From Thermodesulfobacteriota bacterium (GTDB taxonomy: Bacteria; Desulfobacterota_D; UBA1144; Nemesobacterales; JAJCZQ01), in assembly GCA_965215275.1 (NCBI GenBank), contig OZ244044.1:1280001-1344000 (forward strand): a stretch of DNA of 64,000 nucleotides, given 5' to 3'. This document shows, in pieces, positions 50,243-55,905 of the stretch. A program made the position numbers and the translations under genes. Position 1 is the first letter of the stretch, and every line of letters begins with the position of its first letter. The notes under the pieces were generated by a model. It made no database searches and was not told where the DNA came from. It was given only the letters and a program-made list of their open reading frames with translations.

Positions 50243-51271
50243 CTAATTTCCTAATACTGTTTCTAACATACTTTTTAACCTGTTTGAATCTTTGACTAAC
50301 TTGCGAATTTCTTCTTTAAGTGCATTGATGTCATTGCGGTCCAGTTTTTCTAGGTCGGGTCGGTCGACACCCTCTATGGATGCACGAGCTCGTTTGACTT
50401 TCGCAAGAGGAACACTAATTCTAGCAGATTGATACGCATCATCAAAAGTAAGGTCACTTCTGATATATCTCTTTAAAATCTTGTTTTTGTTGATAATTTT
50501 TGGCAATTTGTTTCTAAGGTCTTGTGCTGTAAATTCATTTTTATCGGTATTATCATTGTTATCATCATTACTGGTAAGATTCCTTATTTTATTCAATATA
50601 AAACAACGAAGTTCATTATTTTTAGAGAAACCATCAGATATTGCCTTGCTCCTAACAATTACATCGTAATAACTAAAATGATACATATTGCTGTCTTGAT
50701 TTTTCTTCATTAACCTAATGGTTTCTATCCTTGTTTTAATCTCCTTTAATGTTTCTCCGAACCGTTCTGCTATATCGGTTTCTTTGATACCCCTATCATA
50801 TCTAACATAAGCAAAATTAGCTTTTTCATATGCGGTCCATTGAGTTTTTCCTTTGACATGAATCTGGTTAAGTAATGCATCTTGTTGTTCATCAGAAAGC
50901 CTAGAGACTATTTGACAGGGAATAAGTTCCCATTCTTCGTTATCTGGATATTTCTCATGTAAGCGATGAAAAACCGCCAGTCGAGAATTTCCTTCGATTA
51001 CTTCTTTTGTATCGTGTCTTACCAGAATTGGTTCTAATAATCCACCATGCTTTTCAATATCTGGGACCAAGTTTTTGACACTTGTTTCGCTGGAGAGTTT
51101 CTCATAGATGATTGTTTGTTGTTCATCAATAGTGAGTTCGTCAAAGTTTTCAACTTCGTGGGTACAAGAAAATACTCGAGGATTATCTCTTAGATATTTT
51201 AATTCATAGATGGACAGATAGTCATACGAGACTGGTATATTAACTTTCAAGATTTTTATTGAATTGTTCAT
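50243..51271 (-). CDS. ParB/Sulfiredoxin-fold protein B
   Basis: DNPRV, I.KHGGLLEPILV, VIEGNSRL, WTAYEKA followed by an HTH-like segment. Confidence 0.78.
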   Translation of the reverse strand: MNNSIKILKVNIPVSYDYLSIYELKYLRDNPRVFSCTHEVENFDELTIDEQQTIIYEKLSSETSVKNLVPDIEKHGGLLEPILVRHDTKEVIEGNSRLAVFHRLHEKYPDNEEWELIPCQIVSRLSDEQQDALLNQIHVKGKTQWTAYEKANFAYVRYDRGIKETDIAERFGETLKEIKTRIETIRLMKKNQDSNMYHFSYYDVIVRSKAISDGFSKNNELRCFILNKIRNLTSNDDNNDNTDKNEFTAQDLRNKLPKIINKNKILKRYIRSDLTFDDAYQSARISVPLAKVKRARASIEGVDRPDLEKLDRNDINALKEEIRKLVKDSNRLKSMLETVLGN

Positions 51272-51283
51272 ATTAGTTTTTCT

Positions 51284-52756
51284 CTAAGTAAATTGATAAT
51301 TTTTATATTGAAGAATTTGTTTTAATGCTTCGGACAAATCAAAATTGAATTCTTTTTTAAATTCATTTTGTGAAATATCCCCTTGTGCCAATTGAGCTGC
51401 TTGATGTTTAGCATTCAATAATATATCTACCCATTCATCAATAGTTTCTTTTGCAATAAGGTTGTGAACAAAGCAACTCTCTTTCTGTGGTATTCTGTGA
51501 ATACGGTCTTGAGCCTGCAAATAATCATCAAGGCTAAATCCACGGTCATAAAACACTGCATGCTTTGCTATAGTTAAAGTCAAACCTTCTTTTGCAGCAC
51601 CTGGCGTGGCTAACAAGATTTTACAGGAAGGTTGTGTTTTGAACCTTCTTATTGCATCATATCGCTTCTCAATAGAAATCTTCCCATGCACTTTTGCTGG
51701 AAGTAATGATTGTAGTTTATTGCTTAACCATTCTATATTTTCCACAAAACATGTCCATACAATAACCTTATTTGTCTGAATATTAATTTCTTGGATTAGT
51801 TTTTCTAATCTAACAAACTTGCTTGGTAGACCTTTATATGTTTCATCCACAAGCATAGGGTTGGAGGCACACTGTACAAGACGCAATAATCTCTTCAAAA
51901 CATCTTCTGCGTTATCTTTTATAATACCTTTATCACTTTTGAACTCATAAATCAAGTCATTTCTGTATGATGCATAAATGTTTGCTTGGTTAGGTTCTAA
52001 TTCAACAAAATGTGTAAGTATGGTCTTATTAGGAAGGGCAATTCCTGCTGTTTTCTTTGTCTCACGTACAGAAAATTCCTTTAGTCTTTCCATTGTTTCA
52101 GAGAGTTTTTCTCCATACGGATGTATATTCTCTGTTTTATCTGGTAGGTCTACAGAGTTTTTAAATTTGGCGAAAGAATCTCCGAGTGACTTGCCACAAT
52201 CAAGAAATTTAATTTGAGACCACAAATCCTGTGGACGATTGGCAACTGGAGTTCCTGTCATTATAATACGACGAGAAAAATGGGTTGATAAGGAGTGAAA
52301 ATCTATTGAAAGTTTTGCCTTTGGGTTTTTAATTTTTTGGCTTTCGTCAAGGATTACTCCAACACGACAAGTGCTGAGAAATAAGTGAATAAGGTCAATG
52401 TTAGCAGATATAACTTCATAGTTCATTACATATATTAACACTGGTGAATTTAGGGCTATGCTGTTTTTACGACGATTTTCTGACAGAATTTTTGGAGTTA
52501 CATATGAGTGGGTTGATAACTCATCTATCCAGTTTTGAACTAGTATTTTTTTTGTAACGATAAACGCTGTATCAACGATGTCATTTTCAAGCCAATACAA
52601 GATCAAATCAACGGCGATCTTTGTTTTTCCAAGTCCCTGTTCATGAAAGATTGCAGCGTAAGGAAGTGGTCTTACAGCTCTGACGGCATCAAGTTGATAT
52701 GGGTAGGCTTCTAACTTAGCAGTCAACTTCGGTGGTTTTCTTAGTTTAAATGCCAC
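51284..52756 (-). CDS. Compact SNF2-family helicase/translocase
   Basis: YPYQ, EQGLGKT, LDESQKIKN, MTGTP, EGLTL, QAQDRIHR. Confidence 0.92.
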   Translation of the reverse strand: MAFKLRKPPKLTAKLEAYPYQLDAVRAVRPLPYAAIFHEQGLGKTKIAVDLILYWLENDIVDTAFIVTKKILVQNWIDELSTHSYVTPKILSENRRKNSIALNSPVLIYVMNYEVISANIDLIHLFLSTCRVGVILDESQKIKNPKAKLSIDFHSLSTHFSRRIIMTGTPVANRPQDLWSQIKFLDCGKSLGDSFAKFKNSVDLPDKTENIHPYGEKLSETMERLKEFSVRETKKTAGIALPNKTILTHFVELEPNQANIYASYRNDLIYEFKSDKGIIKDNAEDVLKRLLRLVQCASNPMLVDETYKGLPSKFVRLEKLIQEINIQTNKVIVWTCFVENIEWLSNKLQSLLPAKVHGKISIEKRYDAIRRFKTQPSCKILLATPGAAKEGLTLTIAKHAVFYDRGFSLDDYLQAQDRIHRIPQKESCFVHNLIAKETIDEWVDILLNAKHQAAQLAQGDISQNEFKKEFNFDLSEALKQILQYKNYQFT

Positions 52757-54205: not shown

Positions 54206-54318
54206 ACTATTGTCTCCTAGTTAGCCGAAACGGCATAATAATCAGATGTTTAATTATCTATTTATCATAATTTGTCGATTTTATCACGTTTTATATAAAT
54301 TGAGAAATGAGTTAGTTG

Positions 54319-55905
54319 TTAGCTTTCCAGTCCTGCGTCCTCAACAAATTCATCCTCAGCAAGATTGCAACCAATTTGTTGATTTATTTCTTCTTGTAAT
54401 CTGTAAATTTCTTCTGTTTCAGATTTTGTGGCTTTCTTATAGAATGAAGTTATTTTCTTGATTTTGGAGTTTTTAAAGCCATTACCAATTGTTCTTTTCT
54501 TTGAGTAACGATTTTCTGGTAAAGAAAGCCAGTTTAAGAGTTCCTTTTTATCGTCTTCCGACAATTTAGATAATTGACTTTTAAAATCGTCAAATTCACC
54601 TTGTCCACCTTGTTCTCTAAACCACTTTCTATGAAATATGTATCGATGTGGATAGAGAAGAATTTCTTTAAATTCATCAGTGGAACTTCCAAAGGCATAA
54701 TTAAAAAAACCCGGGTTGCCACTTACAACCCCGTGTGTTGCTTGTAATATAATTTGAAAAGAACGTAGTTGATACCAAGTCCATTTTTCTCCGATGTGAG
54801 TTCTATCTGGTAGGTCTGTTGGTTGATAACGCATGGGAAATGACCAAATGCGGATATTAAGTTCTTCGTTCAATTCAATGTTTAGTTCCATTCTCTTGTA
54901 TAGGTCGTCAGGTGTATCATGAAAGTTGTAAAGCATATAATTGGAGAGTCTATCCATACCATACTTATGAGCAAAGCGTATTGAAGTTTCATACTGTTTG
55001 CGGAGCCCCCAATGATCAAAGGCAATCCGCAGAGGACTAACACATAACTTTGACATTTCTTTTAAAAACATCTCGTTCTTGCACAAAATACGGGAGTCGA
55101 CTCCCTGATTGAAATCTACCCTCCTTTTTAAATTAGAACGCCCTCTTTTAATTTTAGCTCCCTTTGAAAATCCTAAATTTTGTATTTCTGCAACAAGTTC
55201 ACGGAAATTTTGCGAGGCGGTGAAGTTATTATCCATCAGAACTAAATCTTTTTTTTCTCCATATTTTTTTGCTATACCTTCTACAATGCCTGATATAGAA
55301 GGAGTGTCTCGCTGAGCTCCTTCTAACTTTGGAACACCACAAAAGCGACAAGAACGAACACATCCACGAGAAGCGTAGGTAAAATAAGCATCTCTAACTG
55401 GATAAACATAGTCTACTTGCTCAAGAATACTGTAATCGGGAATTAAATCCTCTATTGGTGTTCCTTTTGTATCTTCTTGATAAAAATCCCTCTTGCTAAG
55501 TTGTAAGGATTTGGCAGGCGAATCAGACAGGAGACCTGTTATAAATCTAATTCCTCTCCACTTTCCTTTGTTGTTTTTCTGTTCATCTGTAAAAATTTTG
55601 TGCATCAAAGATACAGCAATCCCACCAACAAATATCTTATTTTTTTTAGACCTTGATACTTGTATTGCAAAATCTATAGTTTTTGCAATACGTTTAAATT
55701 CAAAAGAGAATAGGGTTGTAATGTAAATTCTATCCCAATCCAAACTATAAACCAAAGGGTCTTCTCCTTTTATAAAGTGAACATTATCATTCTTTCCAAT
55801 GTGGTACTGAGCAATTTTCATTAGCCCCAAAGGTGGATACTTATTTCTATAGCCGGGTTCTATTAGTAAGATATTTTTTGAAGGCATATCAGATTTTCTC
55901 TTCAA
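54319..55905 (-). CDS. Radical SAM protein with N-terminal cobalamin-binding-like domain
   Basis: ILLIEP.Y.NKYPPLGLMKI, ITTLFSF, VGGI, SRGCVRSCRFC (CX3CX2C), DNNF, VDFNQG.D.R, RIAFD, YMLYNF.DTP; start may be ATG 55887. Confidence 0.9.
   Translation of the reverse strand: MKRKSDMPSKNILLIEPGYRNKYPPLGLMKIAQYHIGKNDNVHFIKGEDPLVYSLDWDRIYITTLFSFEFKRIAKTIDFAIQVSRSKKNKIFVGGIAVSLMHKIFTDEQKNNKGKWRGIRFITGLLSDSPAKSLQLSKRDFYQEDTKGTPIEDLIPDYSILEQVDYVYPVRDAYFTYASRGCVRSCRFCGVPKLEGAQRDTPSISGIVEGIAKKYGEKKDLVLMDNNFTASQNFRELVAEIQNLGFSKGAKIKRGRSNLKRRVDFNQGVDSRILCKNEMFLKEMSKLCVSPLRIAFDHWGLRKQYETSIRFAHKYGMDRLSNYMLYNFHDTPDDLYKRMELNIELNEELNIRIWSFPMRYQPTDLPDRTHIGEKWTWYQLRSFQIILQATHGVVSGNPGFFNYAFGSSTDEFKEILLYPHRYIFHRKWFREQGGQGEFDDFKSQLSKLSEDDKKELLNWLSLPENRYSKKRTIGNGFKNSKIKKITSFYKKATKSETEEIYRLQEEINQQIGCNLAEDEFVEDAGLES

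Follow-up and report, generated by a model that had tools for sequence, protein, structure and literature searches.

What would a bacterium do with a radical-SAM enzyme placed beside two ParB-fold proteins, a small nuclease and a SNF2-family ATPase? This combination occurs in the window, i.e., the whole 64,000-nucleotide stretch analyzed here (contig OZ244044.1 of a Thermodesulfobacteriota bacterium, positions 1,280,001 to 1,344,000), where the initial annotation had read it as a modification/restriction-like or nucleotide-sensing defence system.

Gene layout and insertion site

All five open reading frames are present, co-oriented and uninterrupted, as had been described, and are read on the minus strand in the order radical SAM, ParB-A, nuclease, SNF2 and ParB-B. 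The whole cassette (50225..56092) is a 5,868-base (5.9 kb) insertion between two convergent genes outside the system, lon on the left hotspot flank (47794..50223, plus strand) and a CxxC-20-CxxC zinc-finger membrane gene on the right (56091..56429, minus strand; TIGR04104, E 1.2e-4). The left flank, which we take from its sequence to be lon (as did the initial annotation), is present in 31/31 genomes searched. The cassette had been said to start 20 bp after the lon stop; lying on the minus strand, it ends 19 bases from it, and the two genes converge. Its reported AT-richness is real (GC 34-35% vs 42.5% for the genome).

The radical-SAM enzyme (54319..55887, minus strand; 522 aa) starts at ATG 55887 and not at TTG 55905 (528 aa), judging from homologue alignments. 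A 113-base spacer (54206..54318), with the AGGAG ribosome site of ParB-A at its end, separates it from ParB-A (53171..54205, minus strand; 344 aa), which overlaps the nuclease (52741..53184, minus strand; 147 aa) by 14 bases; this overlap had been noted at a greater extent, counted from TTG 53190, in place of which homologue alignments favor ATG 53184. The 16-base overlap of the nuclease with SNF2 (51284..52756, minus strand; 490 aa) and the 12-base gap from there to ParB-B (50243..51271, minus strand; 342 aa) are exactly as first given. Translational coupling, suggested for the series, is in keeping with these overlaps and the short gap, but because 113 bases lie between the radical-SAM gene and ParB-A, the former is not coupled here. 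Inspection by eye of the ORF list from 44 to 64 kb recognized no integrase, ParA or phage structural gene, in agreement with the earlier reading, and the profile scan covered the cassette and the two ORFs to its right. No terminal repeats were found at the cassette ends, and a promoter/terminator scan was uninformative (26 sites vs 23.7 expected by chance).

The five genes are a removable insertion, as a near-identical strain carries the empty site: in contigs of runs X12 and X13, a stretch of 51 unrelated letters links position 50224 with 56093, and the two flanks show four and two differences, respectively, from the window sequence. Other cargo occupies the same site in relatives, i.e., an AAA ATPase in G001 and, in G002, genes that we take by recognition to be a type I restriction-modification system and Dcm/Vsr, and the CxxC-20-CxxC gene is also found there in both genomes and in the empty-site strain. 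The mobile, defence-hotspot context proposed for the locus is thus borne out. The same strain-level cassette was found in runs of several studies.

The five proteins

The radical-SAM enzyme carries the motif C176xxxC180xxC183, its three cysteines invariant in the homologue alignment, and a conserved acidic tail (EDAGL). It matches phrog_9298 (E 1.5e-39) and, below the cut-off, Pfam Radical_SAM (E 0.0013), and its model (pLDDT 71) matches MiaB, MgmA, TsrM, OxsB and TokK (E 1e-6 to 1e-4); motif and fold matches together place CxxxCxxC on a partial TIM barrel, as in the radical-SAM superfamily. Alternating strands and helices in the modeled residues 5-105 (pLDDT 59-91) form an N-terminal Rossmann domain resembling a B12-binding one. 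The Pfam B12-binding family PF02310 gave no match to the enzyme; its PPLGLMK and GGIA motifs presumably resemble those of B12-binding domains, and the source genome encodes two B12-binding proteins above the Pfam cut-off. The enzyme probably uses cobalamin. Class B radical-SAM enzymes (MgmA, TsrM, OxsB, TokK and CysS) likewise have a Rossmann domain before the CxxxCxxC barrel, but share only 11-14% identity with the window enzyme at TM-scores near 0.3, and the latter differs in scoring below every Pfam/NCBIfam cut-off and in its DNA-handling gene context. The substrates of the closest fold matches are tRNA, proteins, small molecules and a nucleotide, and in no case DNA; we know of no precedent for bacterial immunity in which a radical-SAM enzyme writes on the genome. 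The enzyme family is large, accounting for 7,918 of the 8,000 scored candidates.

ParB-A consists of a ParB/Noc/KorB-type nucleotide-binding domain (with DGNTR), a helical middle and a helical C-terminus. Its model (pLDDT 86) matches ParB, KorB and Noc (E 1.5e-6 to 6e-5), and its atlas neighbors score 0.97-0.98, with ParB_N on 17-59% of members in three of the four listed clusters; NPR, GNTR, H129 and W136 are invariant. ParB-B, which carries EGNSR, is a distant paralogue (25% identity over 215 aa, E 4e-9) with a match to phrog_1033 (E 9.4e-7) and invariant NPR, EGNxRLA, H138, K142 and W145. The ParB/Srx fold with GxxR is hence assigned to ParB-A by model and fold search and to ParB-B by homology and PHROG matches. 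Domain order and fold of ParB-A are those of the CTP-gated DNA clamps ParB, KorB and Noc, whereas the window proteins have GNTR or GNSR instead of GERR, the canonical motif of such clamps, a family-specific H..G...W motif, two paralogues and no adjacent ParA. A ParABS partition module was considered and rejected (neither the cassette nor the adjacent sequence has a ParA-like ORF, and 49900-56600 contains no array of repeats), and so was a prophage replication or partition module, against which ORF content, PHROG matches and the repeat scan all speak, in line with the first reading.

The small nuclease shows PD48-49..EAK63-65, and 24 homologues keep H7, D30, P48, D49, K65 and Q78 invariant and E63 nearly so. 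Pfam matches are weak (REase_AHJR-like, E 0.0097; HSDR_N, E 0.018) and no solved structural relative was found; we infer a PD-(D/E)xK-type fold from the motif. The SNF2-family ATPase is minimal, with intact motifs (EQGLGKT, DESQ, TGTP, QAQDRIHRI), clear Pfam matches (SNF2-rel_dom, E 2e-29; Helicase_C, E 4.6e-14) and no accessory domains. The motifs listed in the initial annotation (CxxxCxxC, GNxR type, PD..EAK and the SNF2 ATPase motifs) are therefore all in place.

A reduced form of a larger system

The same five genes recur in the same order in L008, at 59-80% identity to the window, so the order is not due to chance and the anticipated synteny is indeed conserved. The insertion site differs between the two genomes, two families of the order carry all five frames intact, and comparison of the two copies (dN 0.13-0.34, dS 1.4 to saturated) indicates that all five genes are under purifying selection.

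Among the surveyed loci, which are the best-scoring matches and not a random sample, a GHKL ATPase is present in 77/78 and a DndB/DpdB-like gene in 48/80. The window cassette has no GHKL gene beside the radical-SAM gene, its other five genes being clear orthologues; L029 shares the gene order, and there the ATPase gene occupies the position of the 113-base spacer. An assembly artefact was ruled out here, as contigs of runs X5 (54167-55130) and X10 (54142-54583) bridge the spacer without differences. GHKL is absent genome-wide from the complete source genome (G000) and from the second five-gene genome (G041), and three control genomes each gave a GHKL match with E below 1e-130; PF14072 (DndB) is likewise absent from G000 and G041 and detected in G068 and G121, and our own DndB-type profile found no match in G000.

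In FastTree phylogenies (duplicate and fragment loci left out), the window SNF2 and ParB-A nest within a clade that otherwise carries the ATPase, and its loss is therefore derived. Judging from these gene sets, the cassette is a reduced form of a larger, widespread and unnamed system, a point that the initial annotation missed. Forms without the ATPase arose on at least three further occasions, i.e., in L113 (the gene is missing from the locus, with another copy present in the genome, G068), in L286 and in the L125 group. The provirus L286 has the five-gene order of the window with an enzyme from a small, distant phage branch that overlaps ParB-A, and no GHKL on its 51 kb record. The system is patchy (6/120 genomes of the phylum) and occurs on plasmids and proviruses. 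No new cassette emerged when further loci of the L125 and L286 kinds were sought, the SNF2 scan gave two loci, and a lineage-specific DNA pattern had no match in metagenome contigs.

The window enzyme retains 197 of the 202 columns conserved in ATPase-linked relatives, 196 of them retained in L008 as well. Eighteen columns differ in the window lineage; since several of these differences also occur in ATPase-bearing relatives, we do not claim an interface lost with the ATPase. The lineage has a long stem in the tree (0.46), and the function of the enzyme may have changed along it.

Dependence of the block on the enzyme

The four-gene block that accompanies the radical-SAM gene was found with it in all seven plasmid records having full-length ParB-A (gene tables for three), in 8/8 viral loci, in the single new genome that a survey of 400 genomes from another order yielded and in 5/5 intact copies in relatives; across these plasmid, viral, 400-genome and relative surveys, no intact block was seen without the enzyme. 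The only ParB-A matches lacking it (L110 and L111) are both broken remnants. The enzyme, in turn, occurs without the block in 49/80 loci (26/50 among those with full flanks). The dependence is one-way, by analogy like that of a nuclease on its protective methylase.

Four prophage-type loci (L125, L126, L129 and L134) have a 40%-identical relative of the enzyme after a ParB protein, and no GHKL. Both of the partner proteins scanned (L125 and L134) match PADLOC PD-Lambda-5_A (E 4e-32 and 2e-30), and going by these matches the enzyme stands in the position of the PD-lambda-5 methyltransferase. Solo relatives of the enzyme are found in phages (L207, L209 and L222), which also carry orphan methylases. 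Among the enzymes with no placed locus, the seven closest are P0002 and P0004-P0009 (taken with cluster members); none of their 21 contigs match ParB-A or GHKL lists by size, compared with 21/117 ParB-A contigs that size-match GHKL contigs (top 120 matches, 10 expanded clusters). The size matching hints that these seven stand alone; we do not count it as evidence.

A candidate restriction-modification-like defence

We postulate, with roughly even odds, a restriction-modification-like defence in which a radical-SAM writer is paired with a restriction arm made up of the ParB, SNF2 and nuclease proteins, the ATPase being an accessory. The enzyme would use SAM, a 4Fe-4S cluster and probably cobalamin in order to modify a base or sugar, either at a site or close to it, so that host DNA would carry its chemical mark. 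The two ParB proteins would bind DNA as a nucleotide-gated clamp, giving site recognition, and loading or release of the writer might be a further role of theirs, like that of DpdB toward DpdA. Where DNA is unmarked, the small nuclease would be moved along by the SNF2 motor and cutting would follow. The GHKL ATPase of larger forms would lie outside this minimal machine; its retention in nearly all surveyed loci is hard to reconcile with an accessory role. A bolder version, which we hold tentatively and at less than even odds, is that a cobalamin-type enzyme writes a novel DNA mark, that the five genes are the minimal working form and that the solo phage genes are orphan writers copying the mark to escape.

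The initial proposal had left open whether the enzyme writes a mark or makes a signal, and the former half is the better supported. For the latter, the enzyme would modify a free nucleotide, as OxsB and viperin do, and the ParB domains would sense the product and switch on the SNF2-nuclease pair, or the product would itself poison phage replication. OxsB is among the fold matches of the enzyme, ParB-fold partners with nucleotide-binding folds occur in every form (ParB pair, DndB-like, PD-lambda-5_A-like), and a single conserved enzyme combined with exchangeable effectors (SNF2 block, PIN-GHKL, HerA) would suit a signal, as would the one-way dependence. We nevertheless consider it unlikely, given that the enzyme takes a methyltransferase position beside PD-lambda-5_A-like genes, that self-marking explains solo phage copies more easily, and that ParB-A has the architecture of a DNA clamp and not of a bare sensor domain.

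It is less likely still that the cassette is directed at invaders or selfish, the enzyme damaging or re-labeling DNA that is incoming or modified and so making it a target of the nuclease, or the whole acting as an addiction or exclusion element. The patchy occurrence and the plasmid and provirus copies would fit, and in the consulted part of a preprint on BapA/Brig3 (10.64898/2026.02.25.707755) there is a precedent for a base-editing helper of a defence enzyme; the solo phage copies and the PD-lambda-5 swap, however, favor self-marking, and the chromosomal site is one shared with restriction-modification genes. Addiction and defence are not mutually exclusive. The most doubtful reading is a partly decayed relic, in which the system cannot do without the ATPase and the five genes are no longer fully functional or retain just part of the function, e.g., protective marking. 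It draws on the 77/78 retention of the ATPase, its derived loss and system remnants in relatives (L101, L110, L111 and L094), but has to contend with five intact frames in two families, purifying selection at near-saturated synonymous sites, the conserved enzyme columns shared by window and L008, differing cassette sites in two genomes, the same strain-level cassette across several studies and the repeated origin of ATPase-less forms.

Earlier non-methylase marking systems (phosphorothioate, deazaguanine) each introduced a new DNA chemistry. If the restriction-modification-like reading is true, a radical-SAM writer, which could attack unactivated carbon atoms, would be another. The 5.9 kb form without ATPase and DndB-like gene reveals which parts are droppable and is the unit most easily cloned, and the reading offers a hypothesis for the common solo radical-SAM gene of phages.

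Comparison with known systems

The system was not found in PADLOC, NCBIfam or the literature searched, which upholds the view that it matches no named system; the consulted parts of PMC3226654, PMC2292703, PMC12839542 and the Brig3 preprint do not describe it. PD-lambda-5, a compact system combining restriction-modification and abortive infection with a methyltransferase, as far as the consulted part of its description goes (Vassallo et al. 2022, PMC9519451), likewise couples a modifying enzyme to a ParB-type protein on a small mobile unit, but the window ParB proteins are without the long C-terminal part and a SNF2 protein and separate nuclease are added; PD-Lambda-5_A models match neither window ParB at E up to 1, and no DNA methyltransferase is among the five genes. 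In the Dpd 7-deazaguanine system, the ParB-fold NTPase DpdB assists the DNA writer DpdA and the restriction arm includes the SNF2-type DpdE, according to the consulted part of PMC10164549. Larger forms of the window's system carry a DpdB-like gene (E 6e-17), but the DpdE match to the window SNF2 is confined to the shared motor core (model length, 857-1293 positions), and DpdA transglycosylase and DpdC have no PADLOC/NCBIfam match within the cassette. Dnd/Ssp systems have a modification core, interchangeable nucleases and a ParB-superfamily helper, and DndC is unrelated to radical-SAM enzymes (PMC10853773, part consulted); DndC/SspD and DndD/SspC have no match in the cassette. For Zorya, DISARM, BREX and Hma, only motor-core matches far below NCBIfam cut-offs were seen (e.g., ZorD, 59 of 1500 bits), with no partner genes. 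The gene set falls outside every named family tried, which is the sense in which we call it new, and its logic is, by analogy, probably borrowed from restriction-modification.

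Cassette organization and insertion site

Five uninterrupted open reading frames on the minus strand of the window are read in the order radical SAM (55887-54319), ParB-A (54205-53171), nuclease (53184-52741), SNF2 (52756-51284) and ParB-B (51271-50243), with the radical SAM and nuclease starts placed from homologue alignments and the others taken from the ORFs. With a GC content of 34-35% (vs. 42.5% in the genome), these intact frames are indeed the five co-oriented, AT-rich genes of the initial annotation. Its placement of the cassette beside lon also holds (19 bases from the lon stop), but the two are convergent, i.e., the cassette ends there rather than starting after lon. 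The tight packing it described holds for the last four genes (the block, ParB-A to ParB-B), which overlap or almost touch; the radical SAM gene is set off by 113 bases. Further low-GC stretches lie in the window at 37001-42000 (26-30%) and 24001-26000 (30-32%). At 56561-59044 a subtilisin-like peptidase with a P-domain and an Ig-like domain is encoded, with similar genes in L112 (another region of this genome); this stretch is missing from the lon site in two related genomes, G001 (same genus) and G002 (same family).

Contigs of two sequencing runs from one other study carry an empty site, in which 51 letters are all that separates lon from the zinc-finger gene, and this strain shows 6 differences from the window in 633 flank bases. 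The lon site of G001 holds one gene (L005:4019-5257), which we take to be an AAA ATPase, and that of G002 (L006:4447-15342) presumably encodes type I restriction-modification, GHKL-type, Dcm- and Vsr-like genes, all named by recognition. The lon site is thus a hotspot. The radical SAM enzyme was found in none of 30 relatives and in six of 120 genomes of the phylum, its own included. As neither an integrase (its absence nearby had been noted initially) nor terminal repeats were found at the cassette, we infer that cargo is exchanged here through recombination in the flanks. The cassette is real, mobile and under selection.

The encoded proteins

The radical SAM protein has a CxxxCxxC motif and an N-terminal Rossmann domain, and no Pfam or NCBIfam match above cut-off. 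Its model (pLDDT 71) matches the folds of MiaB, MgmA, TsrM, OxsB and TokK at 11-14% identity; from this fold, the enzyme is predicted to use cobalamin, and the host genome encodes two B12-binding proteins. A structure model and fold search liken ParB-A to ParB, KorB and Noc, and ParB-B is its paralogue (25% identity). The nuclease gives weak profile matches and has a PD..EAK motif conserved among homologues, while SNF2 consists of the motor only, with every motif present. PADLOC (PADLOC-DB of 2023) returned motor-core matches and two weak candidate matches for the cassette, in agreement with the earlier failure to match a named system.

A wider radical SAM system

At least 7,918 relatives of the enzyme exist, some of them on plasmids and viral contigs. 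Of 571 genome loci, we surveyed the 80 best-scoring (78 with downstream sequence, 50 with full flanks); like the genomes searched, these are best matches and related genomes rather than independent samples. Among these best 80, a GHKL ATPase adjoins the radical SAM gene in 77 of the 78, a DndB/DpdB-like gene precedes it in 48/80, and the four-gene block accompanies the enzyme in 31/80 (24/50 with full flanks). Conserved synteny of the five genes, which the initial annotation proposed to survey, is borne out by L008, a locus from another family of the order with the same genes in the same order.

Several variants were seen. A divergent block has three ParB genes rather than two (L004, L013, L027, L063, L067), and viral contigs (L127:5555-11527, L131, L142) carry a four-gene form in which the radical SAM enzyme and GHKL are accompanied by an uncharacterised gene and an ATPase resembling HerA (E 1e-6). 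DndB-like genes of 770-820 aa lie beside the system in L035, L037, L099 and L100; that of L037, the one scanned, also has a HEPN-like C-terminal match. The GHKL genes of L022, L051, L053 and L081 read RGLWGIGR vs. RGFRGVGR in the family.

Loss of the GHKL ATPase

L008, at a different chromosomal site from the window, is the sole ATPase-less locus of the 78. In the single-contig genomes G000 (the window's own) and G041 (with the L008 gene order), a profile of 24 ATPases gave short N-terminal matches alone (E 2e-10 or weaker), vs. full-length matches (E below 1e-130) in three control genomes; DndB was found in neither. Contigs of two runs (X5 and X10) span the radical SAM/ParB-A junction with no differences. 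In trees, the SNF2 and ParB-A proteins of the window and L008 group inside an otherwise ATPase-bearing clade (supports 0.97-0.99), and L029 has the window's gene order plus an ATPase in the gap; on these sequence comparisons, the loss in this lineage is derived.

Between the window and L008, dN is 0.13-0.34 and dS 1.4 to saturated (simple counting method). The most conserved gene is that of the radical SAM enzyme (80%), which in the window retains 197 of 202 family-conserved columns. Another ATPase-less locus, L113, has the five genes in another order, and its genome carries a second copy with the ATPase; further such forms are the provirus L286 and the group of L125, L126, L129 and L134. In G067, L101:9666-9989 holds a remnant (67% identity) that keeps the C-terminal part of an enzyme from the window's lineage, with no GHKL or ParB-A gene after it.

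A writer, a signal or decay

Three patterns point to a writer role for the radical SAM enzyme. Dependence is one-way: the block has a radical SAM neighbour in 7/7 plasmid records, 8/8 viral loci, the one new genome among 400 and all five intact copies in relatives, and occurs without it only as two broken remnants (L115, which ends within SNF2, is uninformative here), while the enzyme often occurs without the block. In the L125 group, a radical SAM relative follows a long ParB protein, with no ATPase, and both of the ParB proteins scanned (2/4) match PD-Lambda-5_A. Lastly, phages carry solo radical SAM relatives. In L286, the block is joined by an enzyme of a small phage branch (hhalign 95%; tree support 0.98), whose gene overlaps ParB-A, and no ATPase occurs anywhere on the record; the block thus seems to need the enzyme's chemistry rather than the ATPase. 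We therefore favour, with a probability of about one half, the cassette being a minimal, restriction-modification-like form of an unnamed radical SAM system, in which the ParB proteins would assist the DNA writer, as DpdB does.

The one-way dependence fits equally well an enzyme that makes a signal instead of a mark, and both the nucleotide binding of ParB folds and the presence of OxsB among the fold matches agree with this, yet we consider it rather unlikely. Less likely still is a five-gene form decayed or altered in function, for which the near-universal retention of the ATPase in the surveyed loci leaves room, as does the long stem on which the window's enzyme branches in the tree.

Comparison with known systems

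We found no description of this gene set in the main texts of a mostly non-subscription literature, nor in the accessible portions of PMC10853773, PMC12839542, PMC2292703 and PMC3226654, and the radical SAM system is unnamed. The precedent for the proposed ParB role, DpdB, is presented in the available part of PMC10164549 as a ParB-fold ATPase that helps an enzyme writing on DNA, with a model that places it around the DNA. The window's own genome has a second ParB-led cassette outside the window (L112:4823-8098; G000:C1:790822-794097), comprising a ParB-like gene (PD-Lambda-5_A, E 1e-11; PDC-M38A, E 4e-13), a 273-aa uncharacterised gene and a C5 cytosine methyltransferase, i.e., a related ParB protein paired with an ordinary methylase. 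PD-lambda-5 itself appears, in the accessible sections of the respective sources, as a compact, methyltransferase-containing RM+Abi system (PMC9519451) and among HEPN-bearing and DNA-modifying systems (10.1101/2024.10.26.620412). Whereas PD-lambda-5 combines its ParB protein with a methyltransferase, the L125 group combines its ParB protein with a radical SAM enzyme.
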